From: Candidatus Omnitrophota bacterium
Lineage (GTDB): Bacteria > Omnitrophota > Gorgyraeia > Tantalellales > Tantalellaceae
Direction of reading: 5' to 3'
Assembly (NCBI GenBank): GCA_028715965.1
Contig: JAQUQS010000001.1
Coordinates: 164,188 to 228,187 of the forward strand
Length of the DNA: 64,000 bases
Below the pieces are notes generated by a model, which was not told the DNA's origin, made no database searches, and worked only from the letters and a program-made list of their open reading frames with translations. Shown here one piece after another: positions 16,992 to 33,848 of the stretch. A program made the translations under genes and the position numbers. Position 1 is the stretch's first letter, and the number at the start of each line of letters is the position of its first letter.

Positions 16992-18158
16992 TCATATCCC
17001 CCTGTCCAGTTCCATCAACATTTCTATGTGTTTTGTCCTCGGGAACATGTCGAAAAAGGCCTTGCGGCCGCATTTCCACCTGCCTCCGGATATAAGCACC
17101 TTGATATCACGCGCCAGTCTGGACGGATCGCATGACAGGTAAAATATCTTATCTATCCCTTCCGCCGTGGCCAACTTCTCCAGGAACTCCTTTTTAACAC
17201 CTATCCTCGGAGGGTCCAGGAACACAGTATTCCTTTTTCCCTTCTCCCTGGCAAAAATGTCGAAGAACACGGTCTCGGCGGTACCTTTATAGAATTTGAT
17301 ATCGCTGATATTCCCGGTCCGGGCCGTCGATTTAGCACATTCGATAGCTATACGACTTGAATCTATGCCGACTTTTCTAGTGTACCCTCCCCCTGAAAAG
17401 AAAGTAAAGAACCCCACCCCGCAGTATGGATCGAAGAACACGTGATCCTCTCCCGAGTCCCCTGTCCAATCATCGAGTTTCTGTGAGATCTTGTCGGCGA
17501 CATATTTATTGGCCTGGGAAAAGGCCTTAGGAGACATATATAGTTTCCCCCTGCCGGTATCATCAAGGTAGAACCTCTCCCCCTGAACATCGGACGACCA
17601 GACCTTCCCTTCGCTATCAACCTTGATAGTGACATCCCCGGCCTCACAGCTATCCGGGAGGGAACCTAACGCGTCATTAAGTTCTTTAGCGGCTATGCGA
17701 CATTCTTTTATCTCCAACACCTCGCGGCCTGACATATCATAGAAACCATACGCCCCTTTGGACGTCCTGTGGAGCGTTAGGCTTTTCCTATACCCCATAT
17801 CAACATCGGAAGGAACGATGTCCGGATCCAAGCCGTCACGTATCCCGGCGATCCTGGCAAAAATGTCCTTGATCTGTGATGTCTTCAATACCACCTCTTC
17901 ATCGTATTTTACATGCTGGTACTGGCATCCTCCACACGTCCCGTAATATTGACATGCCGGAGCTATCCGGTCGATCGAAGGTGTGATCATTTCCAGGATC
18001 TCCCCCTCAACAAATCCTGACGTATCCCTGGTCTCCCTGATCCTTACTTTTTCCCCCGGAAGAGCCCCTGAGACAAAACACACTTTACCGTCTATACGGC
18101 CCATGCCCTTGCCTCCGAAAACGACGGATACTATATCCACAATGTGTTCCCTGCTCAT
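16992..18158 (-). CDS. rlmD: 23S rRNA (uracil-C5)-methyltransferase of the RlmD/RumA family, with an N-terminal TRAM domain.
   Basis: A TRAM-like N-terminus is followed by the Fe-S cysteine cluster CQYYGTCGGCQYQH and a C-terminal SAM-MTase fold (FDPYCGVGFF...VFLDPPR...SCDP). Confidence 0.8.
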   Translation of the reverse strand: MSREHIVDIVSVVFGGKGMGRIDGKVCFVSGALPGEKVRIRETRDTSGFVEGEILEMITPSIDRIAPACQYYGTCGGCQYQHVKYDEEVVLKTSQIKDIFARIAGIRDGLDPDIVPSDVDMGYRKSLTLHRTSKGAYGFYDMSGREVLEIKECRIAAKELNDALGSLPDSCEAGDVTIKVDSEGKVWSSDVQGERFYLDDTGRGKLYMSPKAFSQANKYVADKISQKLDDWTGDSGEDHVFFDPYCGVGFFTFFSGGGYTRKVGIDSSRIAIECAKSTARTGNISDIKFYKGTAETVFFDIFAREKGKRNTVFLDPPRIGVKKEFLEKLATAEGIDKIFYLSCDPSRLARDIKVLISGGRWKCGRKAFFDMFPRTKHIEMLMELDRGI

Positions 18159-18177
18159 TTTTCCTTGCCTTCCCGGC

Positions 18178-18222
18178 TTTTTTAAAAAAAAGTAGGGAGC
18201 CTTCTCAGGGCAGGCTCCCTAC
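18178..18222 (-). terminator. Rho-independent terminator for the Gly/Gln-rich protein gene (10-bp perfect stem plus U-tract).
   Basis: GTAGGGAGCC-loop-GGCTCCCTAC occupies 18192-18222. On the plus strand it is immediately preceded by AAAAAAAA (18184-18191), which is a U-run after the hairpin on the minus-strand transcript. Confidence 0.7.
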
Positions 18223-18248
18223 TTACGGAAATAAGACCATATTTTGTA

Positions 18249-18677
18249 TCAGTTGCCTTTAACGCCTTCTTTCAATCCTTCTTTATACCCGTCGGTATAA
18301 CCTTTCTTATATCCATTAGAGTATCCGGCCTCATAACCATCGGAATAAGCGTTACTGGGCTCTCTGTAGGTCTGTTGTTGCTGGTACACAGGCTGCTGTT
18401 GCTGGTATGCGGGCTGCTGTTGCTGGTACGCGGGTTGGCTGCTCTTAGGCTCTTCCGTAAGACTGTCCAGAAGAGCTCCGCCAAGTATATTCACTCCCGC
18501 TCCCACCAACGCTCCCGTTCCAGCGTTACCTCCACCAGCAGCGCTTCCCGCGGCACCAGCGCCGGCACCAAGAAGCCCCTGTTTAAGGATATCCCTGCTG
18601 TCCGTAAAAGCCTCCTGACTGAACAACGTTAACGCGAATAATATCAACACTAAACAAATAAGAGACTTTCTCCCCAT
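18249..18677 (-). CDS. Small secreted low-complexity protein with a glycine-zipper segment, three QP(A/V)YQQQQ repeats and D/N/KGY repeats; function unknown.
   Basis: It has a signal peptide (MGRKSLICLVLILFALTLFSQEA), a GAGAGAAGSAAGGGNAGTGALVGAGVNILGGALL segment, a 27-bp tandem DNA repeat x3 (about 18353-18433), and a strong terminator downstream. Confidence 0.6.
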   Translation of the reverse strand: MGRKSLICLVLILFALTLFSQEAFTDSRDILKQGLLGAGAGAAGSAAGGGNAGTGALVGAGVNILGGALLDSLTEEPKSSQPAYQQQQPAYQQQQPVYQQQQTYREPSNAYSDGYEAGYSNGYKKGYTDGYKEGLKEGVKGN

Positions 18678-18793
18678 AAACTACCCTCCTTTAAGACCTG
18701 TAAGACCCATGGCTATTATACCTGTTTGGACATAACTATATTATCAAAAAAGCTCCATACGGGCAACTTAAAATGATTTGCGCCCCTACCCGG

Positions 18794-19705
18794 CTAGCAC
18801 AGGATACCCTGACGTGTCCCCCTGTTCCTGAACTCACTGTTTATACGCTCTATCACACCGGATTTATCGTCAACCCACGTCGGAGCGATCAGGTATCCCT
18901 TCTTTACGTCCGGGGCGAGCCTCAAAACAACGATATCGGGTCTTGTTCTTTCAAGAAAATCGCACACTGACAAAGCGTATTCATCTTTCTCCATGATGTG
19001 TACGCGTCCTTCAATATAATCTTTCTCCATAGGTGACCCTTTAAGCACATGTAACACATGCAATTTTATACCGTTCACCGGCAATGTGGATAACTGCCCG
19101 GCTGTGGCCATAATATCTTCCCTGGACTCCCCCGGCAGCCCCAGGATGACATGTACACCTGTGTTTATGCCGCGTTCGGCCGTTCTTATTATGGCAGTGG
19201 CGGCCTGCGCGAAATCGTGACCCCGATTGATCCGGCCGAGGGTCCTGTCATGGGACGTCTGCACGCCGTATTCCAGCCACACATCATAATCTTTCAAGTA
19301 TCCGGCGATAAGGTCCAGTTTCTCCTCATCCACACAATCCGGCCGTGTAGAAATGGACAGCCCCACTATGTCCTTGTAAGGCCTTATCACGTCATATATC
19401 CCTTTCAATTCACGCACAGGAGCGTTAGTATTACTGGCGTTCTGGAAATAGGCGATGAATTTGATCGAGCCATACTTCGCTTTCATCCTGGAAATGGACA
19501 GTTCTATCTGACCTGAAAGGCTCAGTTCCGTGGTAGCGAACTCACTGTAGCCGGATTCATTACAGAAACTGCATCCTTTGCCGTCAGCCGATCTGTGTGG
19601 ACATTCCAATCCGGCGTTAAGCCCGATCTTCCGCACTTTTGTTCCGAATCTTTTTTTCAGGTAACTGTTGAAGGAGTAATAATACATGGCGGTGGCCGCG
19701 CGCAC
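18794..19705 (-). CDS. Radical SAM protein of the TIGR01212 (YhcC-like) family.
   Basis: The protein is 303 aa. Its motif is LECPHRSADGKGCSFCNESG (CxxxxxxxCxxC variant typical of TIGR01212). Confidence 0.7.
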   Translation of the reverse strand: MRAATAMYYYSFNSYLKKRFGTKVRKIGLNAGLECPHRSADGKGCSFCNESGYSEFATTELSLSGQIELSISRMKAKYGSIKFIAYFQNASNTNAPVRELKGIYDVIRPYKDIVGLSISTRPDCVDEEKLDLIAGYLKDYDVWLEYGVQTSHDRTLGRINRGHDFAQAATAIIRTAERGINTGVHVILGLPGESREDIMATAGQLSTLPVNGIKLHVLHVLKGSPMEKDYIEGRVHIMEKDEYALSVCDFLERTRPDIVVLRLAPDVKKGYLIAPTWVDDKSGVIERINSEFRNRGTRQGILC

Positions 19706-19712
19706 TCGCGAC

Positions 19713-21599
19713 CTATCCTCCGTTCCTGTTCTTTTTCGAGCTCATCCCCCGCGTCTTCAGCATGATCATGAGGATAGAAACAGCCGCGGGTGTTACTCCG
19801 GATATACGCGATGCCTGCCCCAGAGAACGTGGTCTTATAGTTGACAGTTTCTCCCTTATCTCGTTCGAAAGTCCCTGAACGGAACCGTAATCCAGGTCAG
19901 GGGGCAGCAAAACGGTCTCCAGCTCGGAGAACCTCCGTATACGGGTATTCTCCCGGTCAATGTATCCCCGGTACTTAATATCCACCTCAAGAGCTACTTT
20001 TTCATAATATGAGAGCGCCGGCTCTCCGTCAGAAACACGGCATACGTCATCATAACCAACTCCCGGCCTTTTCAACAGGTCATATAGCGATATCCTGCAT
20101 TCCGGTGACGCCTGTCCTTTTTCCGAAAGGAACATCTTGAGCTTATCATCGGGTAACACGTATGCGGTTCTTAGTCTTTCTTTTTCCTTTTCCACTTTTT
20201 CCCGGCGGGCTTCTACCCGATCCATATATGCTGCCGGGACCAGCCCCAATCGCGCGCCGACAGGTGAAAGACGTTCATCAGCGTTATCCTCCCGTACCGT
20301 TATGCGGTATTCCACACGCGAAGTGAACATTCTGTAAGGTTCTTTTGTCCCCTTGGTAACGAGATCATCTATCAATACCCCAATATACGCCTGGGAGCGT
20401 TCAAGCACCAGTGGCCCGCGGCCCAAGACCTTTAGCGCGGCGTTTATCCCGGCCATAAGGCCCAAAGCGGCCGCTTCCTCATATCCGGTGGTGCCATTTA
20501 TCTGGCCGGCCATAAAAAGTCCGGGAACAAGCTTTGTCTCAAGCGAGGACAGAAGCTGTGTCGGGTCCACATAATCATATTCGATACCATACGCCGGCCT
20601 TATCATCCTGGCGTTCTCGAGTCCTTTTATACTGTGTAGCATGAGTTCCTGCGCGTCTACCGGAAGGCTCGTGGATATTCCATTTGGGTAGTACTCATCG
20701 ACCCCGAGACCTTCAGGCTCGATGAAAACAATATGTGAATCCCTGTCCGGGAACCTTACCACCTTGTCCTCTATGGACGGACAATACCTCACCCCGGTGG
20801 ACTTGATCTTGCCAGAATATAAGGGGGACCTGTCCAGGCTTTCCCGTATTATCCTATGCGTATCACCATTCGTTCGCGTCATGTAACAAGGTCTCTGCGG
20901 AAGAACTACCGTATCGGTCGAGAACGAGAACGGGACCACGTCCTTATCCGGGTCCTGCCGCTGCATCCGCGAAAGATCCAGACTTTTTCCGTCAAGGCGA
21001 GCAGGCGTACCGGTCTTGAAGGAATGGACCATGAAACCGTATCGCCGTAGTTCGTCAGAAAGCCCCATCGACGGCGCTTCTCCTATCCTTCCTCCCGGAA
21101 AATGTTCCAACCCTATGTGTATCAACGCGTTCATGAACGTTCCCGGTGTCAGAACAACGCTCTTCGCCCTCACTTCCCCGCCTGAACGTGTGACCACACC
21201 CCCGCACACGCCATCGTCAACGATCACACCGACGACTTCATCTTCAATGACATCAAGCCTTTTCTGGGAAAGTACATGTTCTCGCATGTAGCGGTTATAA
21301 AGTTCCCTGTCTATCTGCATACGGGAAGACCTTGCGGCGTACCCTTTGGAAGAATTAAGCATCCTGAATTGTATACAACTAGCGTCCGCGGCTTTGCCCA
21401 TCTCTCCACCAAGGGCGTCTACCTCTTTGACCAATTGCCCTTTGCCAACGCCCCCTATCGACGGGTTGCAGGAAGTATACCCTATCTTTTCACGGCTGAA
21501 CGTCAAAAGAAGGGTATCCGCCCCCAAACGCGCCGAGACAAGCGCCGCCTCACATCCGGCATGCCCGCCACCGACCACTATAACATCATATAACCCCAT
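19713..21599 (-). CDS. mnmG: tRNA uridine-5-carboxymethylaminomethyl modification enzyme MnmG (GidA).
   Basis: An FAD-binding motif [16 protein letters not shown] is present, and the protein is colinear with GidA over about 620 aa. Its likely start is M7 (21599); the ORF track extends to 21617. Confidence 0.9.
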
Positions 21600-21677: not shown

Positions 21678-21878
21678 TCAGCCCTTATACATCCTGATAA
21701 AATTCTCGATACTGCGATCATACGTTTTTTCCGCCGCAGCGTCAAAGTAACAGGCGGGAAGCTCTCCGTTCTTCCTGTGGTAATGGACACATTCACAACA
21801 CATACCCTTCCTGGAGCACGGATCATAAGAACAGTTACATATATCAAGATTCCTGTCTTTATTGCATTGCATGATCAA
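21678..21878 (-). CDS. Cysteine-rich small protein (66 aa, 8 Cys), probably metal-binding; function unknown. It is co-operonic with metH.
   Basis: The sequence is [45 protein letters not shown]... It starts 29 nt downstream of the metH stop on the same strand. Confidence 0.5.
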
Positions 21879-21907
21879 GCCTCCTTAACTTAACGTTCCC
21901 GGCAAGT

Positions 21908-24900
21908 TCAATACTCGGCTTTCGGATTATGCACGATAATGGCTGTGGTAGATTGTTCCGGCACCATCAGACAAGCTTCGGTAAGGTGTATATCCAGGTT
22001 CCTCTCTATCTCCAGGAGTTTGAATATCTTCTTCTGGTCTTCCAGCTCCGGCCACAAAGCATATCCCGGGCTGTACCGCCTCCCTTGATCTTCGGACAAT
22101 CCCAGTTCCTTCCTAATCCGGCTATGCACATATTCCGCCAGAGCCTCCGCCAGATGTACGCTCATCCCATGGAGAAGAAAAGACCTGGTACCATCACCGG
22201 AATCCTGCATGGCCTTTATGGCCTCGCTGATCTTACTCCCGAGAGTGACGGCCTGGAAAGCGACTATATCCCGCGGGTGGAAATATCCCGCTATTGACCT
22301 GCCTCCAGCTACACTAAAATCGATTTTTTCCGCCGGTCGTCCCAGGCCGTCCATGACATCCATAACAGTACCGTTAACGACACATTCAAAGTAGCCGTAG
22401 ACGGCCTTCATATCAAGCCACCCCTTGCGCACGCTCTCTTCTTTAAGCTCTTTGAGCATGGAACGGTATTCCTTGTCCAAAAGTTCATTTCTCCTGCCCT
22501 TGTCCGCCAGATAACTCCCCCAAGCCGCGTTAAATACCATTTTCTCATCGAGATACGTGAACACTTCGTCCAGGGGTATGTTCGCCAATACCCGTGTGCC
22601 ATAGAACGGTGGTTCCGGGATATCGTTCCCGGTCAGGACTTCGGGGGCCTTCTTTCCCTCAACCTCGGCGCGAGGCACACCTGTTGATGGTACCGTAGTC
22701 GACCTTCCCGGGCTAGTGCGCCCCTTTACGTCCGCGGAAAGCTCCATGCCCCCGTCCATCAAAGCCCGTACGATACGAAGTCCCGTAAAGGCGTCCCTCG
22801 AGTAAAAAACCCCACCCGGGTACCTGGTGCCGTCGCTCAGGACCTCTATCTCCCTGGCGAACTTTTCGTTTGTCGGAGCGCCCCCGATCATGACCGGATA
22901 ATGCAAACCAGCGTCATGCATAGCCTGGACACATGTACGCATATAACGCGCTGTGGACACAAGAAGCGCGCTAAGACCTACGGCGTCCACTTTGTTCTTT
23001 ACTGCCTCCCTTATTATGACATCGACAGGGACTTGTTTTCCCAGGTCGATCACGGTAAAACCATTATTCTCAAGTATCATCTTCACCAGGTTCTTACCGA
23101 TATCGTGCACGTCCCCGAAAACCGTGGCCAGAAGTATCTTCCCCTTTTCCCCGGACGTGCCTTTCGGCATATACACCTTAAGGTGTTCTATGGCCTTCCT
23201 CATGACCTCCGCGGATTGGAGAACGAACGGAAGCACGGTGTCCCCGCGGTCCAAGGCCTCACCAACCTTTCTCATAGCTTCCATAAGCGTACCGTTCAAG
23301 ATCTCCTCGGCACTTTTTTCCTTTAACGCTTCTTCGAGAGCGGGTATGATATTTACCTTGTCCCTGTCAAAGACGCATTTTTCTACGGATACCCGACAGG
23401 CAAGATCGGAAGAGGATACTGATCTTTCGGATCCCTTCCTATCCTGGTAACGCTCTAGTAACCTCTGCAAGGCGTCTTCCTTCTTCATGAAGATGAGGTC
23501 CTCGCAAATAGCGGCATCGTCCTTATCGATATCTTCGTACTTTACGTATTCCATGGGGTTGACAATAGCGTAATCCAGCCCCGCCTGGACCGCATGGTGA
23601 AGGAATACCATATTAAGCTTTTTCCGCGCCTCTTTAGGGAGCCCAAATGATATGTTGCTGACACCTAATATGGTAGCGGCTCCGGGACACTTCTTTTTAA
23701 AGACCCTTATCGCCTCGATAGTATCCATAGCGGAACTCGCGTATTCTTTTTCTCCCGTCCCCAGCGTGAACGTCAAGAGATCATAAAGCAGCCTACGGGG
23801 ATGTATCCCGTGTCCGTTGACCGCCATATCATACAACCTCGAAGCCACGGATACTTTCTTCTCCACGGTCTTTGCCATACCATCTTTGTCGATGGACAGG
23901 TTAACGACAAAGGCACCGTGCTTCTGGGCCAGGCTAAAAACACGATCCGCTCTCCCCCCTCCATCCTCAAGGTTCACGGAATTTATAAAAGCCGTGCCGG
24001 GATACGATTCGAGCGCACCCTTAAGGACATCCTCATCCGTCGAATCTATCATAAGCGGTGTATCCACGCTTTCGGCAAGACGCTTTACTATGCGAGAAGC
24101 GTCTTCTTTTTCCGTATCCCGCTCGGTAAGCACGGCGCATACATCCAATATATCGGCGCCGGACCTTTCCTGCGACTTGCCAAGTTCGACCAGCCCGTCC
24201 ATATCCTTCTCAATGAACATCCTTTTGGCGGCTTTCGAGCCCTGGGTATTTATCCTTTCCCCGACTTTTATAGGCCGATCCATCATGTCAACATCATAGC
24301 CACGGTAGGACCCCGCGCAGAACACGCGTGTCCGCGTATCCTTCGGTTTACGTCTTTTCAACTCTTTGCGAATGGCCTTTATGTGAAGCGGGGTCGTTCC
24401 ACAACACCCGCCTATCAGGTCTATCCTGTACTTTTCGAGGAATCCCGCCAATATCGCGGCCATCTCGTCCGGGCCAAGAGGATAAACAGTACACCCGTCA
24501 CGTTCCACGGGCAGGCCCGCGTTCGGTATACATGATATACTTACCGGACAGTTGTCGCTGAGGAACTTGATATGCGATTCCATTTCCACCGGCCCCGTAC
24601 TACAGTTTATACCTACTGACGCTGCTCCGAGAGCGCTCATTACGGCCATGACCGCGGACACCTCGGTACCCAGCAGCATCCGCCCGTTGTTCGACAACGT
24701 ACATTGCGCCAATATCGGAAGGTCTTTCCTCCTATCGCTCAATGCCGTGCGTATCCCAGCATAAGCGGCCTTCATCTCCAGGAGGTCCTGGGATGTCTCG
24801 ATAAGAACGGCATCCGCGCCACCGTCAATTATTCCCCGGGCCTGTTCGGCAAAAACTTCCGCCAGCCGCGCGTAACTGATGTTCCCTATTGTCGGATCAC

Positions 24901-25285
24901 TCGACGATGGGAGTTTGCCCGTCGGTCCGATAGACCCTACGACAAACCTGCCATGGGAAGGCGACGAATGTTCATCTGCGGCTTTACGCGCCAGAAGCGT
25001 GGCGCTCCTATTTATATCATAAACTTCTTTTTCCAGGCCATAATCGGCGAGCTTAAGGTAGTTGGCCCCGAAAGTGTTGGTTTCCACAGCGTCGGCCCCT
25101 GACGCGAAATAATCATTATGTATACGGGATACCAACCCGGGGCTGGATATTGAAAGATAGTCCATACACCCGGTCCTTCCTCCGAACATGGCCTCATCCA
25201 GCCCGATCGAAGCCGCGTATGTGCCGAACGCCCCATCCAGGAGAATGATCTCTCTCCTCATCTTATCCGCGAACGTAATGCTCAT
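21908..25285 (-). CDS. metH: Cobalamin-dependent methionine synthase MetH, full length: Hcy-binding, pterin-binding, B12-binding and AdoMet reactivation domains.
   Basis: Colinear domains are present: N-terminal Hcy S-methyltransferase (ILLDGAFGT), pterin-binding, a B12-binding DxHxxG motif (DVHDIGKNLV), and a C-terminal activation domain. Its likely start is M14 (MSITFADK, 25285), which forms an ATGA overlap with the batE stop; the ORF track extends to 25324. Confidence 0.9.
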   Translation of the reverse strand: MSITFADKMRREIILLDGAFGTYAASIGLDEAMFGGRTGCMDYLSISSPGLVSRIHNDYFASGADAVETNTFGANYLKLADYGLEKEVYDINRSATLLARKAADEHSSPSHGRFVVGSIGPTGKLPSSSDPTIGNISYARLAEVFAEQARGIIDGGADAVLIETSQDLLEMKAAYAGIRTALSDRRKDLPILAQCTLSNNGRMLLGTEVSAVMAVMSALGAASVGINCSTGPVEMESHIKFLSDNCPVSISCIPNAGLPVERDGCTVYPLGPDEMAAILAGFLEKYRIDLIGGCCGTTPLHIKAIRKELKRRKPKDTRTRVFCAGSYRGYDVDMMDRPIKVGERINTQGSKAAKRMFIEKDMDGLVELGKSQERSGADILDVCAVLTERDTEKEDASRIVKRLAESVDTPLMIDSTDEDVLKGALESYPGTAFINSVNLEDGGGRADRVFSLAQKHGAFVVNLSIDKDGMAKTVEKKVSVASRLYDMAVNGHGIHPRRLLYDLLTFTLGTGEKEYASSAMDTIEAIRVFKKKCPGAATILGVSNISFGLPKEARKKLNMVFLHHAVQAGLDYAIVNPMEYVKYEDIDKDDAAICEDLIFMKKEDALQRLLERYQDRKGSERSVSSSDLACRVSVEKCVFDRDKVNIIPALEEALKEKSAEEILNGTLMEAMRKVGEALDRGDTVLPFVLQSAEVMRKAIEHLKVYMPKGTSGEKGKILLATVFGDVHDIGKNLVKMILENNGFTVIDLGKQVPVDVIIREAVKNKVDAVGLSALLVSTARYMRTCVQAMHDAGLHYPVMIGGAPTNEKFAREIEVLSDGTRYPGGVFYSRDAFTGLRIVRALMDGGMELSADVKGRTSPGRSTTVPSTGVPRAEVEGKKAPEVLTGNDIPEPPFYGTRVLANIPLDEVFTYLDEKMVFNAAWGSYLADKGRRNELLDKEYRSMLKELKEESVRKGWLDMKAVYGYFECVVNGTVMDVMDGLGRPAEKIDFSVAGGRSIAGYFHPRDIVAFQAVTLGSKISEAIKAMQDSGDGTRSFLLHGMSVHLAEALAEYVHSRIRKELGLSEDQGRRYSPGYALWPELEDQKKIFKLLEIERNLDIHLTEACLMVPEQSTTAIIVHNPKAEY

Positions 25286-26040
25286 TTTTTTAATACTCTT
25301 TCTACCGCGGAGTCTTTTATCCACGCGGATTTCCCGTCAGAACGCCTTGCCCTGACCCATCCGTCCTTACTGTTGATTATATTCACCTTCATACCTTCGT
25401 TCAGGGTGAAGAATTTGGTGGCCGAATCAAATGGCCCGTATAGCGCCTCTACCGCCGGGACCATGACAATAGCGGACGTTCTCTCGTTCACCGCTTTATG
25501 CCAGGCCAGGAAGACATTAAAAACAAGTATTATGGAGAAACATATCAAAATTGTCCTGTGATATCGTGTAACCATCCTCCCCGTTACACCTATAGCCAAA
25601 AGAACAAGGATCACTATCATGGAAACGGACGCCACAATGGTCATCTGGTCCACGCTTAATGTTCTCTCATACACCCGTAAAGGCGTCCAGTTCCACACTC
25701 CTTTTTCCGGCACTACCTTAGCTTTTATATCGGACCTGGCGAACCTGTAATTTGCTCGTATATCAGCATCTCTTGGATCCAACGCTAACGCCCTCTCATA
25801 GTTAAGGATGGCCTTGCCCAGATTTCCCGATTTGAAATATGCCCCCGCCAGGTTGTAATATATGTTAGGGCTTTTCTTCCCGGAGGACAGTATCTTCTCG
25901 TATCCGGCTATCGCCCCGGACCAATCAGCCTGTTCATACTTATCGTTAGCGGACGAGAAAAGTTCGGCCGTTGTCTCCGCCAGGCCTCTACCGGCGGTCA
26001 ACATCAAAATAGCCAGAGATAGTACGATCATCTTCTTCAT
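25282..26040 (-). CDS. batE: BatE-like protein (TPR repeats, TM segment, C-terminal SH3b-like domain) of the aerotolerance-type Bat operon.
   Basis: It has a signal peptide, TPR motifs (YYNLAGAYFKSGNLGKAILNYERALALDP), an internal TM segment, and a C-terminal GMKVNIINSKDGWVRARRSDGKSAWIKDSAV (SH3b-like). It is the last gene of the Bat cluster. Confidence 0.65.
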   Translation of the reverse strand: MKKMIVLSLAILMLTAGRGLAETTAELFSSANDKYEQADWSGAIAGYEKILSSGKKSPNIYYNLAGAYFKSGNLGKAILNYERALALDPRDADIRANYRFARSDIKAKVVPEKGVWNWTPLRVYERTLSVDQMTIVASVSMIVILVLLAIGVTGRMVTRYHRTILICFSIILVFNVFLAWHKAVNERTSAIVMVPAVEALYGPFDSATKFFTLNEGMKVNIINSKDGWVRARRSDGKSAWIKDSAVERVLKK

Positions 26041-27887
26041 ATCTTTATCTTCTCCAGATATACCAGTAATTTTTTGGTTTTTTCAAGTGTTTCCCGGCCA
26101 TCCTTTTTATCCGGATCGAACGCCGCGTATCTGGCCATTTCGCACTTGGCTAGCACCTCTCCGAGCATGGATATTATTTCGCCACCCTTTTGAGTTCCTT
26201 CCACCCTGGCCCTCACGGCATCGACCGTTACATTACCCTTAGGCAGGTCAAGCTTACCCGACACGTATTCTCCAAGCGCCTTGGTAAGAGTATCATAGAA
26301 CAACTCCATATCGCCTTTCTTCAGATAGGATTCGGCTTTCGAGATACCTTTCTTGGCTTTTCCCGGGGCCTTGGTAAAACGGGCATATTTCTTGTCGGTA
26401 CGCATTTTCTCGCTTTTGCGGTATGCCCCAAAAAATATACCGAACAGGACAAGCACAAGTAAGTGCCCGGGCAAAAATAATGGGTTCCTGTATAGATATC
26501 CGCCTATCGGGCTTACTTCCCCGGTATCATCCTTGATATGTATGATATCCTGCCCTATTTTTTCCTGCGGGTAGAATACCTGTTCTTTACCCGAAAGCGT
26601 TACCATCTTTACACTGTTCTCGGTCCCGGACGGTTTCATTACCGAGATCGGGAAAGGTCCCTTCTTTATGGTCTTGTATCTGCCTGAAGCGGGATTAAAA
26701 AAGCTGAAAGAGACCTCGGGTATTTCAGTTACTTTGTCGCTCTTAGGTATTATTACTTGTTCGTATACTTTCTTGTTCGTTTCCCTGGAAACATCCGGTT
26801 CATATGTCTTAAGGTCGTCCGTAATGTTAACACTGGGAGAAGTGACCGTATCCATGTTCCCGGAACCGGAGATAATGGTCTTTAATACCACGGGATCCCC
26901 GACATTGACTTTGATGGGATCTATGGACGCATCCATATCGAAATACCCTACAGCGCCCTTAAAGTCCAACGGCTTACCTTCAGACGGGAAAGGTAATACC
27001 GACACATTAAGCCCTTTCGACTCGAGTTCCACTGGATAAACATCATATCCGCCAAAAGCACTATCGAAGAAATCGTCATTAAAAACGCTCATGCCGAACA
27101 GGGAGGATCTTCTGCGCGAGACCTGTTTCCTCACCAGCATTTTGCAATTAAGCCTGGCCGGACCGATCTCATATTCCCCTTCTTTTATGGCGAAGATGTT
27201 CTGCCTGAAAACAAGTACTTCATATCTACGTCCGCCCACTGTCTCCTGGGTCCTTTGCGGCTCATTGAAATCCTCCCCGGAAAAACCTTCATGAGCATAA
27301 GCCGGGAATTCTATATCCCTCAGGCCCACTCCATCCACGTAAAGTTTTATGGTGAGTATCGCCGATTCGTTGACATAAAGGCTGTTCTTGTCTATGCTCA
27401 TGGAAAGGAATATATTATCACCGGTATAAGCGGGTACGGAGGTAGCGTCCGGGACACTGGACATCGGGGGTTGTCCGGCCTGCTGGGTCACGGCGGGTTT
27501 ACCCGTTATGGAGAGGTCGAGCGCCGGAGCTTCATATACCTTACCTCCCTGTTCGGCCCGGAACGGGCCTATTTTATAAGTGCCTTCCCTGCGTGGAAAG
27601 ACCAGATACGTATGTGTGATCGATCGTGACATCTTCCCGTTCACAATGGTCATGCTGGTGGTCGGTCCTATGTACTTTATGTTAAGACCATCCACCTGCG
27701 GGATATCAGGCGCGTCCACATCCTGCGCTCCCCTGAACTCCAGGTAAAGGTATAGGGGGTTACCGACCGAAGCCGTGCTTCTCTCTATCCTGGCGTTGAA
27801 GGCCATTCCCTCTTGTGCCCATCCCGGCAGGACATGGCCCAACAGAAAAACGAATATCAGCGATAATAACCGTGCTTTTTTCATCAC
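26037..27887 (-). CDS. batD: BatD-like protein (616 aa, secreted or outer-membrane associated).
   Basis: It has a signal peptide (MMKKARLLSLIFVFLLGHVLPGWAQ), the size and position typical of BatD between BatC and BatE, and a C-terminal TM segment. It overlaps batE by 4 nt. Confidence 0.65.
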   Translation of the reverse strand: MMKKARLLSLIFVFLLGHVLPGWAQEGMAFNARIERSTASVGNPLYLYLEFRGAQDVDAPDIPQVDGLNIKYIGPTTSMTIVNGKMSRSITHTYLVFPRREGTYKIGPFRAEQGGKVYEAPALDLSITGKPAVTQQAGQPPMSSVPDATSVPAYTGDNIFLSMSIDKNSLYVNESAILTIKLYVDGVGLRDIEFPAYAHEGFSGEDFNEPQRTQETVGGRRYEVLVFRQNIFAIKEGEYEIGPARLNCKMLVRKQVSRRRSSLFGMSVFNDDFFDSAFGGYDVYPVELESKGLNVSVLPFPSEGKPLDFKGAVGYFDMDASIDPIKVNVGDPVVLKTIISGSGNMDTVTSPSVNITDDLKTYEPDVSRETNKKVYEQVIIPKSDKVTEIPEVSFSFFNPASGRYKTIKKGPFPISVMKPSGTENSVKMVTLSGKEQVFYPQEKIGQDIIHIKDDTGEVSPIGGYLYRNPLFLPGHLLVLVLFGIFFGAYRKSEKMRTDKKYARFTKAPGKAKKGISKAESYLKKGDMELFYDTLTKALGEYVSGKLDLPKGNVTVDAVRARVEGTQKGGEIISMLGEVLAKCEMARYAAFDPDKKDGRETLEKTKKLLVYLEKIKI

Positions 27888-27940
27888 ACCTCTTGATCCA
27901 CCGTAAGTATTCTCCTATCCAAGACCCTCTTATATCATCG

Positions 27941-28906
27941 CTACCAATCCCTGACGACCGGAGGGCTCCCGGACCTGCGTGCTTTCTTTTCCTCCGCCCG
28001 CATCCTGGACTCTTCTTCTTCCTGTGACCTGAGCAGCATCTCGGCCTCGTCCCTGGTCATCCTGCCTTCGGACCCAAATCCTTCCGAGGACTGCTCTTGC
28101 TGGTCTTGCCCGTTATCATTACCCGACCCAGCTCCGGGCTGGGGGCCTTCTTCTTCATCCCGGTTTTCCTCATTTTTATTCTGCTGTTGCCCACCGGACT
28201 GTCGCTGGTCTTCCTGGTCCTTCTGCTGTTGCTGGTCCTGCTGATCCTGCTGCTCTTCCTGGTCCTTCTGCTGTTGCTGGTCCTGCTGATCCTTCTGCTT
28301 TTCCTGGTTCTTCTGCTGTTGCTGGTCCTGCTGATCGTTCTGCTTTTCCTGGTTCTTCTTCTGTTGCTGGTCCTGCTGATCCTGCTGCTTTTCCTGGTCC
28401 TTCTGCTGTTGCTGATCCTGTTGCTGGCTCTCTAACGTTTCTATTTTTTTACGTGTATACTCAAAATTGAATTTAGCGTCCATATCCTCCGGAGCCAGTT
28501 CAACAGCTCTTTTAAAATATTCCAGGGATTCCTTATACCCGGCTATAGCCTTTGCCGGCGAGCTTTTTTCGGCCTTCTCCGCCTGGCGATATCGTGAATT
28601 TCCTATGTTGTATATAGCCTTGTCCTCTATCTTTTCATCTCCGGCTGACATGGATCCAAGGAACGCTTTTTCCGCCTCCCCGTATTTACCCTCTTTATAC
28701 AAGACCGCGCCACGGTTGTACTCTATACCAGGCTGGTCCTTCCCGCTTGAAATAGCTTTATCGTATTCCTTGAGCGCTTCTTCATATTTCTCATCTTTAT
28801 ATAACCGGTCAGCCCTGCCCAGATCACCGCCGGCAAAACACAACCCCGCGTGCATACACACCATAAGCGCGCACAGGTATATGGTGGACGTAATAGACCT
28901 TCTCAT
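27941..28906 (-). CDS. batC: BatC-like TPR protein with a long acidic, Gln-rich repetitive C-terminal region.
   Basis: It has a signal peptide, TPR repeats (YNRGAVLYKEGKYGEAEKAF...), then roughly 90 aa of QQQKDQEKQ(Q/N)DQQDQ repeats. Confidence 0.65.
   Translation of the reverse strand: MRRSITSTIYLCALMVCMHAGLCFAGGDLGRADRLYKDEKYEEALKEYDKAISSGKDQPGIEYNRGAVLYKEGKYGEAEKAFLGSMSAGDEKIEDKAIYNIGNSRYRQAEKAEKSSPAKAIAGYKESLEYFKRAVELAPEDMDAKFNFEYTRKKIETLESQQQDQQQQKDQEKQQDQQDQQQKKNQEKQNDQQDQQQQKNQEKQKDQQDQQQQKDQEEQQDQQDQQQQKDQEDQRQSGGQQQNKNEENRDEEEGPQPGAGSGNDNGQDQQEQSSEGFGSEGRMTRDEAEMLLRSQEEEESRMRAEEKKARRSGSPPVVRDW
28207..28430. repeat. In-frame 45-bp tandem repeat (about 5 copies) inside batC, encoding 15-aa Q/D/K/E units.
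   Basis: Seen directly: ttcctggtccttctgctgttgctggtcctgctgatcctgctgctc recurs with a few substitutions (28207-28430). Confidence 0.8.
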
Positions 28907-28922
28907 TTTACCCTCTATATCT

Positions 28923-29936
28923 TCAATTGACGATGTTTTTTCTTCTGTCTCCCAGGAACACCTCTATCAAAAGCAGGAACCCGGCGATAAATAACGGCAG
29001 CTGGAACCTTTCATAATAGCGTTTTTCCATCCTACTCTTGAATTCCTCTTTTTCAAGCCCGGCAAGTTTTTTCTCGTATATAAGGTCCAGCCCGAACTCC
29101 GCCCCGGTAGCTCTTACATACATACCTCCCGTCTGAAGGGCTATTGACTGAAGCACGTCCTCCCTGAGACGGGTCTTGACCACATTACCTTCCATATCCT
29201 TAAGAAAAGATGTCTTGCCCGTACCCGCGTCCCGGACAGGAACAAGTTCCCCTTCTTCCGAGCCGATACCCACACAATATATGTTGATCCCGGCCACCTT
29301 GGCTTTTTGCACGGCTTTATCGACACCACCCTCAAGGTCCTCTCCGTCGGTTATGATTATCAGTATCTTATTCTCTTTTTTCTCCTTCTCATAACTTTCG
29401 ATGGCTTTATATATCGCCTCCGAGATGGATGTTCCCCCCATCGGTATCGTATCTACACTTATATCATCAAGCGCCAGCAGGAACCCGTCATAGTCAATGG
29501 TCAAAGGGCATTGAAGAAAAGCCGACCCTGAAAAAGCTATAAGCCCCAACCTGTCACCCTTGAGTTTCTTGACCATATCCTTGACAGCCAGTTTGGCACG
29601 CTCCAACCGGTTAGGCCTTACGTCTTCAGCGAGCATACTTTTCGAGGTATCCAGCGCTATTATTATATCTATGCCCTGTTTTTTCACTTCCTTCCATTCG
29701 AATCCCCATTGGGGACGCATAAGCGCCATCGCGATGAAAAATAACGCGGCAAGTTTTATGATATCCTTTCTTTTCCGGCGCGAATTGTCATATGAAGCGG
29801 CTATTTCAGCTAAAAGACCTTTTTCGGCGAAACGTTCCAGCGTGCTCTTCCTGCGGCCGGAAGAAAGAATAAAGAACACCGCTACCGCCGGTAACAGCCA
29901 TAAAAGAACACTCATTTGCGGCGCGCCGAACATCAT
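28923..29936 (-). CDS. batB: BatB-like von Willebrand factor A domain membrane protein.
   Basis: It has N-terminal TM helices and a VWA MIDAS motif (IIALDTSKSM ... ITDGED). Confidence 0.75.
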   Translation of the reverse strand: MMFGAPQMSVLLWLLPAVAVFFILSSGRRKSTLERFAEKGLLAEIAASYDNSRRKRKDIIKLAALFFIAMALMRPQWGFEWKEVKKQGIDIIIALDTSKSMLAEDVRPNRLERAKLAVKDMVKKLKGDRLGLIAFSGSAFLQCPLTIDYDGFLLALDDISVDTIPMGGTSISEAIYKAIESYEKEKKENKILIIITDGEDLEGGVDKAVQKAKVAGINIYCVGIGSEEGELVPVRDAGTGKTSFLKDMEGNVVKTRLREDVLQSIALQTGGMYVRATGAEFGLDLIYEKKLAGLEKEEFKSRMEKRYYERFQLPLFIAGFLLLIEVFLGDRRKNIVN

Positions 29937-29937
29937 G

Positions 29938-30942
29938 TTAAGGTAACCTCCTGAATAAAGTATCGGACAATATTATCTCCGCCAGGAAGAGCGCCAAAGC
30001 CGGGACCAGTAGATACGGGAACAACTCCTTGAAAATGTTGAACCCGGTCTCTTCTATCGGGGTCTTCTCCAGCTTATCTATCTCATCATATATGCGTTCC
30101 AGTGATTCCGTATCGGTCGCCCTGTAATATTTACCGCCGGTAACATCCGCTATTTCCCCGAGAAGCTCTTCATCTATCTCGACCTCCATAGGTCGTAAGA
30201 CCGTATTCCCGAACCTGTCTTCCACAGGATAGGGGGCCATCCCCCTGGTCCCGGCGCCTATCGTGTACACCCTGACACCTAATGCCTTGGCGGCTTCAGC
30301 GGCTACCATCGGGGATATTGTCCCGGCGTTGTTCCGTCCATCGGTAAGCAATATCACGATCTTCTGCTTTGTCTTGGTATCCTTCAACCGGTTAAGCGCG
30401 GCGCTTATAGCCGAACCTATCGCGGTACCGTCCTTCATCATGCCTATCTGTACCCTGTCCAGGTTCTCCTCAAGCCAATTATGGTCGAGTGTAAGAGGAC
30501 AGACCGTGTACGCCAGGCCCGCGAAAGCGACCAGGCCTATCCTGTCGTTCGGCCTTCTCTGCACAAAAGAATCAACTACCTTTTTGACCACTTCAAGCCG
30601 GTCAACCCGGCGCTTGTTGATCTCGAAATCCATAGCGCGCATACTCGTTGAGGTATCCACCGCCAGCACGATATCGATACCTTCCACGTATATATGTGTC
30701 TCTTCCAGTATGGTTTGGGGCCGGGAACCGGCGGCTAGCACAAGTATTATGGCCAGGAGTCTGAGATGCCGGACCTTAGCGCTTAATCTGCTCCTCAGCG
30801 TGGGCTTTATCCCGCCGATCACCGTGTTGTTGGAGAACCTGATAAAGCTCCTTTTCCCGGAACGCATATGGTCAAGCACCAGATACAGGGCTATGACCGG
30901 GGGTATGGATAAAAGGACAAGGGGAGAAGCCAGACGCATCAT
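29938..30942 (-). CDS. batA: BatA-like von Willebrand factor A domain membrane protein.
   Basis: It has N-terminal TM helices, the MIDAS motif VLAVDTSTSM ... LLTDGRNNAG, and a C-terminal TM segment. Confidence 0.75.
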   Translation of the reverse strand: MMRLASPLVLLSIPPVIALYLVLDHMRSGKRSFIRFSNNTVIGGIKPTLRSRLSAKVRHLRLLAIILVLAAGSRPQTILEETHIYVEGIDIVLAVDTSTSMRAMDFEINKRRVDRLEVVKKVVDSFVQRRPNDRIGLVAFAGLAYTVCPLTLDHNWLEENLDRVQIGMMKDGTAIGSAISAALNRLKDTKTKQKIVILLTDGRNNAGTISPMVAAEAAKALGVRVYTIGAGTRGMAPYPVEDRFGNTVLRPMEVEIDEELLGEIADVTGGKYYRATDTESLERIYDEIDKLEKTPIEETGFNIFKELFPYLLVPALALFLAEIILSDTLFRRLP

Positions 30943-31904
30943 GCCGTTCCCCTTTCTTCTTCCTCACCCTTTTTTGTCTGGTCCACAAGGTCCATGGCTG
31001 ACTTGAAACTGTCTATTATATCGATAGGCCTAGGGGCGAATTTCGCGAACTTTACCATATCACAATGCGAAAGGAACTCCTTTAGAAGACGCTTGTGTTC
31101 CGGGAACAGGTCATCCGTATTTTTCAAGAATGAAAGGAACTCTTCCGTTGTCATTTCAGGGGCCTTGTACGAGAAACGCGCCTCCAGGTACCGCCTTATT
31201 ATATCGGATAACTCGGTATAATATTCGTCCACGAATCCCTTCGATGGAAGCTCCTTTGCTTTCAGTTCCTCCAGCCTCTTATACGCTCTCTCATGCGGAG
31301 GCATGATATTGTCCAAACTGGCCTCACGCAATACGACCCGGAAGCGCCTTATTGCTGCGCGTAGCGCCAATGCCGCGAGTACTGATACAACGAGCAATAC
31401 CGATACAAGAAGAAAATAGTTCCTGAACACGATAAGTCCCTTGATATCCCGTATATCCTTGCTGTCCGGCAGTAGTGTGGTCTGGACATCAATATCCAGA
31501 CCGGCGGATGAGGTCTCATTCCACTTGTCAGCACCCTTTGCCCGGTATCTTACTTTTACGGAAGGGATATGGTACTTACCCGCGGCAAAGCTCCTGAGCA
31601 CATAAACATATCCGGGGACTTTGCCCCATAAAGGACCTTCTTTTTCCGGATATGCCCTTACGAGCTCCATACCTTCCGGCATACCAATCTTCTCGGGGAA
31701 TTCCACATCCATCTTTTTCCCTCCGGGAAAGAAGACCTCGAGCCTGACATCGTCCCCGATGAATATATCCTCTTTCGAGAGCCTGACATCAAGATCCGTA
31801 CCGGTCTTCCCCTGGCAAAAAGATATCCCGCAGCATAAAACGACCAACAGGCTCATGACCCCGCGTATAATGGCTTTACTACTCAGGCTTCCTATTTTTA
31901 TCAC
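30939..31904 (-). CDS. Membrane protein of the MoxR/Bat operon (DUF4381-like position between the DUF58 gene and batA).
   Basis: It has a signal peptide, a central TM segment (LLVSVLLVVSVLAALALRA), a conserved operon position, and a 4-nt overlap with batA. Confidence 0.55.
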   Translation of the reverse strand: MIKIGSLSSKAIIRGVMSLLVVLCCGISFCQGKTGTDLDVRLSKEDIFIGDDVRLEVFFPGGKKMDVEFPEKIGMPEGMELVRAYPEKEGPLWGKVPGYVYVLRSFAAGKYHIPSVKVRYRAKGADKWNETSSAGLDIDVQTTLLPDSKDIRDIKGLIVFRNYFLLVSVLLVVSVLAALALRAAIRRFRVVLREASLDNIMPPHERAYKRLEELKAKELPSKGFVDEYYTELSDIIRRYLEARFSYKAPEMTTEEFLSFLKNTDDLFPEHKRLLKEFLSHCDMVKFAKFAPRPIDIIDSFKSAMDLVDQTKKGEEEERGTA

Positions 31905-31919
31905 GCTTACATACCTCTT

Positions 31920-32822
31920 TTATCGTCTGATAAACCGTTTTTCACGTGTCCTGAAAAACCTTATCAAAGGCTCAACATACGACCTGTCCGTGGACAACTC
32001 TATGTGGTCCACGTTCACCGACCTGAAAAGCCGGCGCGCGCGCTCCCTTATCTCACGGTTCTCCCTGCGGAACATATCCCTGACAGCGGGCGAAGACGTG
32101 TCTACGACCGCCCTTAGTCCGGTTTCGGCGTCCCGGAGCTCCAACAAGCCCGCGTTCGTAAGCTCGGCTTCCGACGGGTCTTCTACCGTAACGGCTATTA
32201 CATCATGTTTTTTATTGGTTATCGAAAGTGTTTTCCGGAAATCATCTGAGTAGAAATCAGACACAAGAAAGACTATCGCCCGCCGGTGAGCCACTTTATT
32301 AAGATGGTTCAGGACCTTGTTTATATCGGTATGGGTCCCTGCTGGTCTATTATGCAATGCCTCCCTTATCACACGAAGCACGTGTTTCATTCCCTTACGG
32401 GGCGGCACGAACTTTTCGACCCTGTCCGTGAACGTGAGCATACCTACCTTGTCGTTGTTCTTTATGGCGGAGAATGCTATGACCGAACAAAGTTCCGCGG
32501 CAAGCTCACTTTTCATGCGTCCCCTTGTCCCGAACCGGCAGGACATGGACACATCAAGAAGGATCATTATGGTAAGTTCCCTCTCCTCCACGAATTTCTT
32601 GATATAAGGATGCCCCATGCGCGCCGTGACGTTCCAGTCTATTGAACGTATCTCGTCTCCCGGAGTGTATTCCCTGACCTCGTCGAACTCCATCCCCACG
32701 CCCTTGAACACACTCTGGTACTGACCAGCGAACACATCCGTTACTTTTCTCGAGGTAGTTATCTGTATCCGTCTTATCTTGCGTATGGTCTCTTTAGGTA
32801 TCATAATGAGCTCCCCGCGCAA
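31920..32822 (-). CDS. DUF58-family protein (MoxR-associated, VWA-like fold).
   Basis: The characteristic DUF58 motifs are ...QYQSVFKGVGMEFDEVREYTPGDEIRSIDWNVTAR... and ILLDVSMSCRFGT. The alternative start M7 is at 32804. Confidence 0.8.
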   Translation of the reverse strand: MRGELIMIPKETIRKIRRIQITTSRKVTDVFAGQYQSVFKGVGMEFDEVREYTPGDEIRSIDWNVTARMGHPYIKKFVEERELTIMILLDVSMSCRFGTRGRMKSELAAELCSVIAFSAIKNNDKVGMLTFTDRVEKFVPPRKGMKHVLRVIREALHNRPAGTHTDINKVLNHLNKVAHRRAIVFLVSDFYSDDFRKTLSITNKKHDVIAVTVEDPSEAELTNAGLLELRDAETGLRAVVDTSSPAVRDMFRRENREIRERARRLFRSVNVDHIELSTDRSYVEPLIRFFRTREKRFIRR

Positions 32823-32855
32823 AAATGATCACTTTATGGTCCGATACGCGGACCG

Positions 32856-33848
32856 TTATGGTACTTCTATCTCGTCGAATATCTTTTTTACTATGTCTTC
32901 CGCGGTCTTGTCTTCCGCTTCGGCCTCATAACTCGGTATGACCCTGTGGCGCAGGACATCCGGCCCTATCGACTTAACATCCTGTGGGGTCACATATCCC
33001 CTGCGCTGCACGAAAGCGTAAGCTTTTGCCGCTATAGCCAGGTTTATACTGGCTCTCGGCGAAGCACCGTAATCGATCAGTCCCTCAAGGTCCTTGATCC
33101 CGTATTCGCCCGGGGTACGGGTAGCGAAGACTATATCAACGATGTATCTTTCTATTTTTTCGTCCATATATATCTCATTCACTACCTTTCTGGCCTCAAG
33201 TATCCTTTCCGGCGATACTACGGGCTTTACGTCTATATGCCTGTCCGTGTTGGCCATCCGTTTGAGTATCTTATGCTCCTCCTCTTTGGAGGGGTAGCCG
33301 ATATTTATCTTCAGCATGAACCTGTCTACCTGGGCCTCGGGCAAGGGATATGTACCCTCCTGCTCTATCGGGTTCTGTGTGGCCAGCACCAGGAAAGGTT
33401 CTTCAAGTTTGTACGTGTTCTCACCTATGGTCACCTGCTTTTCCTGCATAGCTTCCAGAAGTGCGCTTTGGACTTTCGCGGGCGCCCTGTTTATCTCATC
33501 GGCAAGTATTATGTTAGAGAATATAGGGCCTTTTTTAGTGGTGAAAGTACCGTCCTTGGGACTATAGACCAATGTACCGATAAGGTCCGCGGGCAAAAGG
33601 TCCGGCGTGAATTGGAGTCTCTGGAACTTTGTGCTTATGGCGGAGGACAGCACCCTCACCGAGAGGGTCTTGGCCAGTCCAGGGACCCCTTCTATCAATA
33701 CATGGCCGTTGGCGAGAAGCCCGACCATTAACCTCTGTATGAGGTAATCCTGTCCGACTATCACTTTACGTATCTCGGCAAGTAGTTCATCAACAAAAAG
33801 ACTTTCATTCTGTACTTTTTCGTTTATTGCTGTTATGCCCTGGGACAT
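32856..33848 (-). CDS. moxR: MoxR-family AAA+ ATPase (first gene of the aerotolerance-type operon).
   Basis: Walker A is HVLIEGVPGLAKT and Walker B is LADEINRAPAKVQSALLEAM, as in MoxR. A strong SD (AAGGAGGT-5 nt-ATG) supports the start at 33848 (MSQGITAI); the ORF track's longer N-terminus runs into AT-rich promoter DNA. Confidence 0.85.
   Translation of the reverse strand: MSQGITAINEKVQNESLFVDELLAEIRKVIVGQDYLIQRLMVGLLANGHVLIEGVPGLAKTLSVRVLSSAISTKFQRLQFTPDLLPADLIGTLVYSPKDGTFTTKKGPIFSNIILADEINRAPAKVQSALLEAMQEKQVTIGENTYKLEEPFLVLATQNPIEQEGTYPLPEAQVDRFMLKINIGYPSKEEEHKILKRMANTDRHIDVKPVVSPERILEARKVVNEIYMDEKIERYIVDIVFATRTPGEYGIKDLEGLIDYGASPRASINLAIAAKAYAFVQRRGYVTPQDVKSIGPDVLRHRVIPSYEAEAEDKTAEDIVKKIFDEIEVP

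Follow-up and report, generated by a model that had tools for sequence, protein, structure and literature searches.

The BatI operon of Bacteroides fragilis and the clusters of Bacteroidota, Leptospira, Borrelia (bb0170-0176), Francisella and Riemerella combine the gene of a MoxR-type (MRP) AAA+ ATPase with genes for a DUF58 protein, VWA-domain proteins and TPR proteins. The aerotolerance label of the Bat proteins reportedly derives from a transposon mutant of B. fragilis, and their role in aerotolerance appears unsettled, the literature being divided. An oxidative-stress function was not demonstrated in bat mutants of Leptospira, where the 11 tandem genes of the bat cluster seemed to be each transcribed independently despite their operon-like layout (PMC3557215). 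The genes of the Riemerella bat operon respond to oxidative and heat stress (PMC11834572), and a Bat-type VWA protein of Borrelia is located in the inner membrane, its VWA domain lying on the periplasmic side (PMC5700661). Our literature search returned nothing linking Omnitrophota to Bat proteins or aerotolerance. The same eight-gene content and order is found in the 64,000-nucleotide (nt) stretch of a Candidatus Omnitrophota genome analysed here (contig JAQUQS010000001.1; hereafter the window), where the cluster runs directly into metH, the gene of cobalamin-dependent methionine synthase.

This locus differs from the known BatI-type clusters in its host, an Omnitrophota metagenome-assembled genome (MAG), and in the long Q/D/E-rich tandem-repeat extension of its BatC; its continuation into metH is absent from the descriptions of Bat clusters in PMC3557215, PMC5700661 and PMC11834572. 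We consider that the adjacency of bat and metH probably reflects inherited synteny and genome compaction, and not a mechanistic partnership between Bat and MetH. Both the Bat cluster and MetH are of ordinary, known kinds; the host lineage is new, and the linkage between them is lineage-specific but non-specific. On this view a single event in the ancestry of this Omnitrophota lineage would have created the adjacency, which would since have persisted within a collinear block of at least 12 genes. Transcription that begins at the candidate moxR promoter probably continues through metH and farther downstream; such read-through, and perhaps a translational coupling, would be side effects of compaction, and the genes that follow the bat cluster (metH, DUF6485, mnmG and a radical S-adenosylmethionine (SAM) gene) would be unrelated housekeeping genes.

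The arrangement was compared in eight Omnitrophota relatives, all of them MAGs (L003, L004, L010, L011, L012, L090, L091/L092 and L093), found by scanning species-representative genomes with MetH as the seed and metagenomes with a BatE profile, and by look-ups of BatE homologues. Their proteins are 37-48% (BatE), 54-59% (MetH) and 80-86% (MoxR) identical to those of the window. By tblastn, the order moxR-DUF58-batX-batA-B-C-D-E-metH-DUF6485-mnmG-radical SAM is kept in 8/8 relatives wherever the contig reaches, and the block usually continues with genes for a 142-aa protein and a TRAM/U5-methyltransferase. The linkage of bat and metH thus passes the comparison with relatives that the sequence-only reading had itself proposed. 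The comparison is positive yet does not discriminate: batE and metH are kept together exactly as well as DUF6485 and mnmG, or mnmG and the radical SAM gene. Since all neighbouring pairs between moxR and the radical SAM gene are conserved to the same degree as bat and metH, the conservation of this one pair is indistinguishable from synteny of the whole block.

L091/L092 carry an MscS channel gene between metH and DUF6485 (14223-15356 in L091), and a 120-aa gene of the bAvd/23S_rRNA_IVP family lies between moxR and DUF58 in the same genome (L091 2684-3046, also in L092). In L090, the radical SAM gene is followed by the gene of a protein-kinase-domain protein of 2694 aa (17360-20795). The upstream neighbour of moxR is variable: a DinG-like gene in the window, L004 and L090, cytidine deaminase (with or without a GGDEF gene) in L091 and L093, and other genes in L003 and L012. 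Such variation, confined to the gene ahead of moxR, agrees with moxR as the first gene of a unit.

Outside the lineage the linkage was not seen in the loci sampled. The metagenome scan yielded 80 bat loci, 54 of them with at least 1 kb downstream of batE. In the three loci whose BatE is at least 43% identical to that of the window, metH, DUF6485 and mnmG lie downstream; in the remaining 51, with BatE below 42% identity, no metH was found in the locus (up to 10 kb downstream), and the downstream genes are diverse. The nearest bat locus without metH is L013 (MoxR 80%, BatD 37%). The eight-gene order from moxR to batE itself recurs in more than 10 unrelated metagenome loci and is, by this recurrence, the common one. 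Conversely, the MetH scan also gave five metH loci from MAGs outside the lineage, Bacteroidota among them; in L005, the one of these that was compared, no bat genes were found upstream of metH. Considered as a functional pair, bat and metH show neither conservation beyond the background synteny nor recurrence in unrelated lineages.

Compaction is pronounced throughout the window, with 48 of the 53 genes on the minus strand and ~94% of the sequence coding. The 44 co-directional junctions have a median gap of 17 nt; 11 of them are at 0 nt or below, and 7 are exactly -4. Three of the other -4 overlaps join the genes of a radical SAM protein and an S11 D-Ala-D-Ala carboxypeptidase, of an ArsR-type regulator and a YacP nuclease, and of an unknown membrane protein and a cytidine deaminase, all pairs without an obvious common function. 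Gene ends overlap frequently because the genome is extremely compact and nearly all genes run in one direction. All long open reading frames (ORFs) within 18.8-36 kb of the window lie on the minus strand, and the 12-gene stretch from moxR to the radical SAM gene has no internal spacer above 78 nt, with flanking gaps of 106 nt and 116 nt. Collinear arrays resembling uber-operons are known in compact, strand-biased bacterial genomes, and in the window, too, functionally unrelated genes run in one direction over a long stretch, with minimal spacers, and are kept as a block among relatives, here known from sequence alone. GC skew is negative in all 2-kb bins of the window, and a very large ORF (1871 aa) occupies its minus strand at 1049-6664.

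The junction of batE and metH is itself variable. The sequence-only reading had described an ATGA overlap between the batE stop and the metH start, and this overlap is indeed present in the window. Across the lineage, the gap between the two genes amounts to -4 nt in the window, -1 nt in L004 and L090 (a TAATG overlap in both), ~8 nt in L010, 12 nt in L011, 36 nt in L091, 39 nt in L003, 166 nt in L012 and 191 nt in L093. The start of metH is placed at the ATG rather than at the upstream GTG (25324), since the alignments with homologues begin at the first residue of the protein read from this ATG. A terminator scan of the window revealed no terminator-like hairpin at the junction. A riboswitch or similar known RNA at the junction, or in the longer spacers of relatives, was rejected, as no Rfam family reached the gathering threshold in the window or in L012, L093, L003 and L091.

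Several observations weigh against reading the adjacency as synteny and compaction alone. It is present in 9/9 genomes of the lineage despite considerable divergence of BatE (to 37-50% identity), a divergence at which most non-operonic synteny is usually lost; survival of the adjacency over such a distance makes some selection on the arrangement possible, for example through shared transcription. The last codons of batE hold a purine-rich string resembling a Shine-Dalgarno (SD) sequence (GAAAGGA/GAAAGAG), and the gap to metH is at most 12 nt in 5/9 genomes. To judge from sequence, this combination has the look expected of translational coupling.

The strongest form of such coupling, proposed by the sequence-only reading, would place metH under the moxR/bat promoter and under translational coupling to batE, so that MetH is made together with an oxidative-stress or envelope module; its premise is the oxygen sensitivity of MetH, which is due to cob(I)alamin. 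The overlaps in the window, L004 and L090, the constancy of the adjacency within the lineage and the lack of a terminator-like site at the junction are all consistent with it. We nevertheless regard it as highly unlikely. MetH is a cytoplasmic enzyme, whereas signal peptides and membrane helices in the translations of the Bat proteins predict a membrane or periplasmic location for them. Unrelated genes frequently overlap in this genome, the adjacency is no better conserved than those of DUF6485 with mnmG and of mnmG with the radical SAM gene, the junction widens to 166-191 nt in L012 and L093, and the linkage is missing in 51/51 other bat loci. The stress responses of the Riemerella bat operon (PMC11834572) speak for a link to oxidative stress, against which stands the unconfirmed oxidative-stress role of Bat in Leptospira (PMC3557215).

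The long spacers of L012 and L093 bear on another possibility, that metH is expressed mainly from a promoter of its own, situated in the 3' part of batE or, in these two relatives, in the spacer, and that bat and metH are separate units. The L012 spacer (10727-10892) contains short direct repeats and palindromes, with GGGTACAAGTTACACGTTT occurring twice and again as an inverted copy; the L093 spacer (10784-10974) contains GGTTAGCCGGTTTGTTGGT-like repeats and a TTGACC...TATAAA-like stretch before metH. By their sequence, both spacers resemble small inserted repeat elements, and they could hold signals of their own. Besides these spacers, a weak promoter-like match inside batE (25557-25529) and the seemingly independent transcription of the bat-cluster genes in Leptospira (PMC3557215) agree with a separate metH promoter. 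The match in batE, however, agrees with the consensus at 9/12 positions, which is not above shuffle expectation, and the consensus may not be that of the host; nor does a terminator-like element precede metH in the window. Overall, the promoter scan returned 27 sites against 19 expected from shuffles and the terminator scan 16 against 17, neither above chance. A metH promoter of this kind is possible, if somewhat unlikely. In the same two relatives metH is split (L012 10893-14317, L093 10975-14311) into an ORF of ~865-870 aa and a separate ORF of ~241-247 aa for the reactivation domain (Met_synt_B12).

With inherited synteny as the preferred account of bat and metH, the gene following metH deserves separate consideration. 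It encodes a small protein of the Pfam family PF20095 (DUF6485, annotated as 'cytosolic protein'), which the sequence-only reading had described as a Cys-rich protein of 66 aa beginning 29 nt after metH. The eight cysteines were found as described; the length and spacing correspond to a TTG start at 21878, and the likelier start is the ATG at 21872, preceded by AGGAGG 7 nt upstream, which gives 64 aa and a gap of 35 nt. The eight cysteines are invariant in 47 homologues, together with a histidine (H32) and a YDRSI motif, and the window protein has all the invariant cysteines and the histidine of the family. DUF6485 proteins are 60-80% identical across Omnitrophota, Actinomycetota, Caldicellulosiruptor, Nitrospirota, Bacteroidetes and Hydrothermia. 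Compared with the family at large, the position next to metH is lineage-specific, the neighbours elsewhere being other corrinoid genes or unrelated ones.

Corrinoid-gene neighbours occur in Caldicellulosiruptor and in two Actinomycetota MAGs (loci L094, L095 and L102/L103). In Caldicellulosiruptor, DUF6485 lies 20 nt after the gene of a B12-binding radical SAM protein; in the Actinomycetota MAGs it lies 15 nt after the CobA/BtuR corrinoid adenosyltransferase gene, within a CobU-CobS-BtuCD-like cluster for cobalamin salvage and transport (with CobQ as well in L095), and 4 nt before a ZnuBC-like metal transporter of the ATP-binding cassette (ABC) type. A flavodoxin gene adjoins DUF6485 in a Bacteroidetes MAG. 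Contexts unrelated to B12 were seen in Hydrothermia, in Nitrospirota (where the upstream side is not visible), in two further lineages and on a Chloroflexota plasmid. In total, DUF6485 directly follows a gene for a corrinoid-binding or corrinoid-processing protein in 3 of ~9 lineages, metH in Omnitrophota included, which is more than we would expect by chance, in a small sample and for a pattern noticed post hoc.

These neighbourhoods raise the possibility that the functional unit is metH with DUF6485, the latter serving, for example, as an electron donor or helper in MetH reactivation, while bat merely lies upstream. DUF6485 follows metH in 9/9 Omnitrophota genomes, and the order is kept both where the reactivation domain is a separate ORF (L012, L093) and after the MscS insertion (L091); the strict conservation of the family across phyla, its corrinoid-gene neighbours and the flavodoxin gene of the Bacteroidetes MAG point in the same direction. 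Such a unit is unlikely all the same, given that five or six other lineages display no B12 link (counting the Bacteroidetes MAG, its flavodoxin aside), that DUF6485 in Actinomycetota is equally close to the ZnuBC-like transporter, which suits metal handling, and that within Omnitrophota it is linked to mnmG as tightly as to metH. The sampling caveat of the neighbourhood count applies here too. The AlphaFold2 model of the protein is of low confidence (predicted local distance difference test (pLDDT) 66.6), neither Foldseek nor a profile search of PDB sequences found a match in the PDB, and the family went unmentioned in the literature searched. Searches of viral contigs returned no DUF6485, and those of plasmids a single Chloroflexota match of uninformative context.

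More generally, sequence and gene context suggest that DUF6485 could be a new partner of corrinoid enzymes, a small metal- or cluster-binding protein with a redox or handling function in cob(II)/cob(I)alamin chemistry, although we hold this to be quite unlikely; a metal-handling role fits some of its contexts equally well. A corrinoid partner would explain the position of the gene after metH, an adenosyltransferase gene and a B12-binding radical SAM gene in three unrelated lineages, and the linkage of interest may then be that of metH and DUF6485, not that of bat and metH. An intrinsic terminator after DUF6485 was rejected, since the RNA on its 3' side does not fold better than its shuffled versions (z = +1.67). 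Inside DUF6485, a promoter-like TTGACG-17-TATGAT (10/12, a consensus match only) is found on the minus strand at 21717-21745, ~120 nt upstream of the mnmG start, and might be an internal mnmG promoter.

The identities of the genes are given in Table 1. For the ten genes from moxR to DUF6485, Pfam and NCBIfam matches and translations agree with the minus-strand order, tight packing and coordinates of the sequence-only reading. The order of MoxR, DUF58, membrane protein and BatA-B-C-D-E is that of BatI-type clusters, and to judge by its protein families the locus is a canonical MoxR-DUF58-membrane protein-BatABCDE cluster, a predicted envelope module of MoxR AAA+, VWA and TPR proteins.

Table 1. 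Coordinates of the bat-metH block and its signals in the window; gene order follows the direction of transcription.
Feature	Coordinates	Strand	Evidence or remark
Candidate sigma-70-like promoter, TTGAAA-17-TATAGT	33917-33889	(-)	10/12 consensus match; within 106-nt dinG-moxR spacer
moxR, MoxR-type AAA+ ATPase, 330 aa	32856-33848	(-)	AAA_3 1.4e-64 + AAA_lid_2
DUF58/VWA-like protein, 294 aa from homologue-supported ATG	31920-32804	(-)	PF01882 3.8e-79, 265 bits
'BatX' conserved membrane protein, 321 aa, between DUF58 and batA	30939-31904	(-)	weak NCBIfam LB_053 match
batA, membrane-anchored VWA protein	29938-30942	(-)	VWA; VWA_BatA_Lepto 1.2e-53; metal ion-dependent adhesion site (MIDAS) DTSTS
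batB, second membrane-anchored VWA protein	28923-29936	(-)	VWA; VWA_BatB_Lepto 1.3e-37; MIDAS DTSKS
batC, TPR protein, Q/D/E-rich C-terminal half	27941-28906	(-)	Pfam TPR
batD, 615 aa, BatD domains + C-terminal membrane anchor	26037-27884	(-)	PF13584 2.2e-26
batE, 252 aa: signal peptide, TPR, two membrane helices, SH3	25282-26040	(-)	TPR + SH3_4
ATGA junction: batE stop TGA / metH start ATG overlap	25285-25282	(-)	read from sequence
metH, cobalamin-dependent methionine synthase, 1125 aa	21908-25285	(-)	five MetH Pfam domains; TIGR02082 2.6e-277
DUF6485 small protein, 64 aa	21678-21872	(-)	PF20095, 41.3 bits vs cut-off 24
mnmG (tRNA modification), 78 nt after DUF6485	19713-21599	(-)	member of same conserved collinear block
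Radical SAM protein (Radical_SAM + Radical_SAM_C), 7 nt after mnmG	18794-19705	(-)	116-nt gap beyond

The strong SD sequence and AT-rich promoter that had been proposed for moxR both have a counterpart in the sequence: AAGGAGG lies at 33860-33854, 5 nt before the ATG, an AT-rich stretch is present upstream as well, and the candidate promoter is a consensus match only. MoxR carries the Walker A motif GVPGLAKT and the Walker B motif ILADEINR in its translation, and the DUF58 protein a DxSxS motif (DVSMS). No Pfam family matched BatX, whose position is also occupied in the relatives and in many distant bat loci. The batX stop and the batA start overlap by 4 nt, as do the batD stop and the batE start. 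In Pfam, BatA and BatB match VWA and VWA_2; their matches to the Leptospira BatA and BatB models both score under the species-specific cut-offs of these models. In batC, positions 28204-28420 form a tandem repeat with a 45-nt unit (4.8 copies, 93% matches), translated as Q/D/E-rich repeats of 15 aa. Two Logan contigs (L001, L002) carry the identical locus with an identical BatE, and both end inside batC, probably because of this repeat; SRR22315506 and SRR22315508 contain identical contigs. An anti-phage defence reading of the MoxR/VWA genes was dropped, as PADLOC models gave no match to them, and the antisense ORFs (165-261 aa) on the plus strand of the cluster were taken as spurious, as they matched no Pfam family.

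MetH unites five domains in one chain (S-methyl_trans, Pterin_bind, B12-binding_2, B12-binding and Met_synt_B12), all above the Pfam cut-offs. It displays the B12-ligand motif DVHDIG and, in the translation, the RxxxGY S-adenosylmethionine (AdoMet) motif, and can be aligned from one end to the other with 8G3H, a structure of full-length MetH. Its score against the NCBIfam equivalog TIGR02082 (922.9 bits) is under the strict cut-off of 1010.85; it is a divergent family member, whose architecture and motifs still support its identity as MetH. All modules and the DxHxxG motif are shared with the E. coli-type enzyme and the full-length Thermus structures (8SSC, 8G3H), from which the window protein differs in being somewhat shorter, and its lineage in having the reactivation domain as a separate ORF in two relatives.

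Were the bat-metH linkage truly regulatory, one-carbon and B12 metabolism would be coupled, in a phylum without cultured members, to an envelope chaperone system of which little is understood. The present comparison favours gene order inherited in a compact genome instead. In genomes of this kind, neither a stop/start overlap nor a conserved adjacency says much about shared function unless it is judged against neighbouring junctions. The association of DUF6485 with cobalamin is the sole element of the locus deserving follow-up, and a useful by-product of the analysis is a testable lead on this highly conserved Cys-rich protein, which recurs beside cobalamin-dependent and cobalamin-processing genes.

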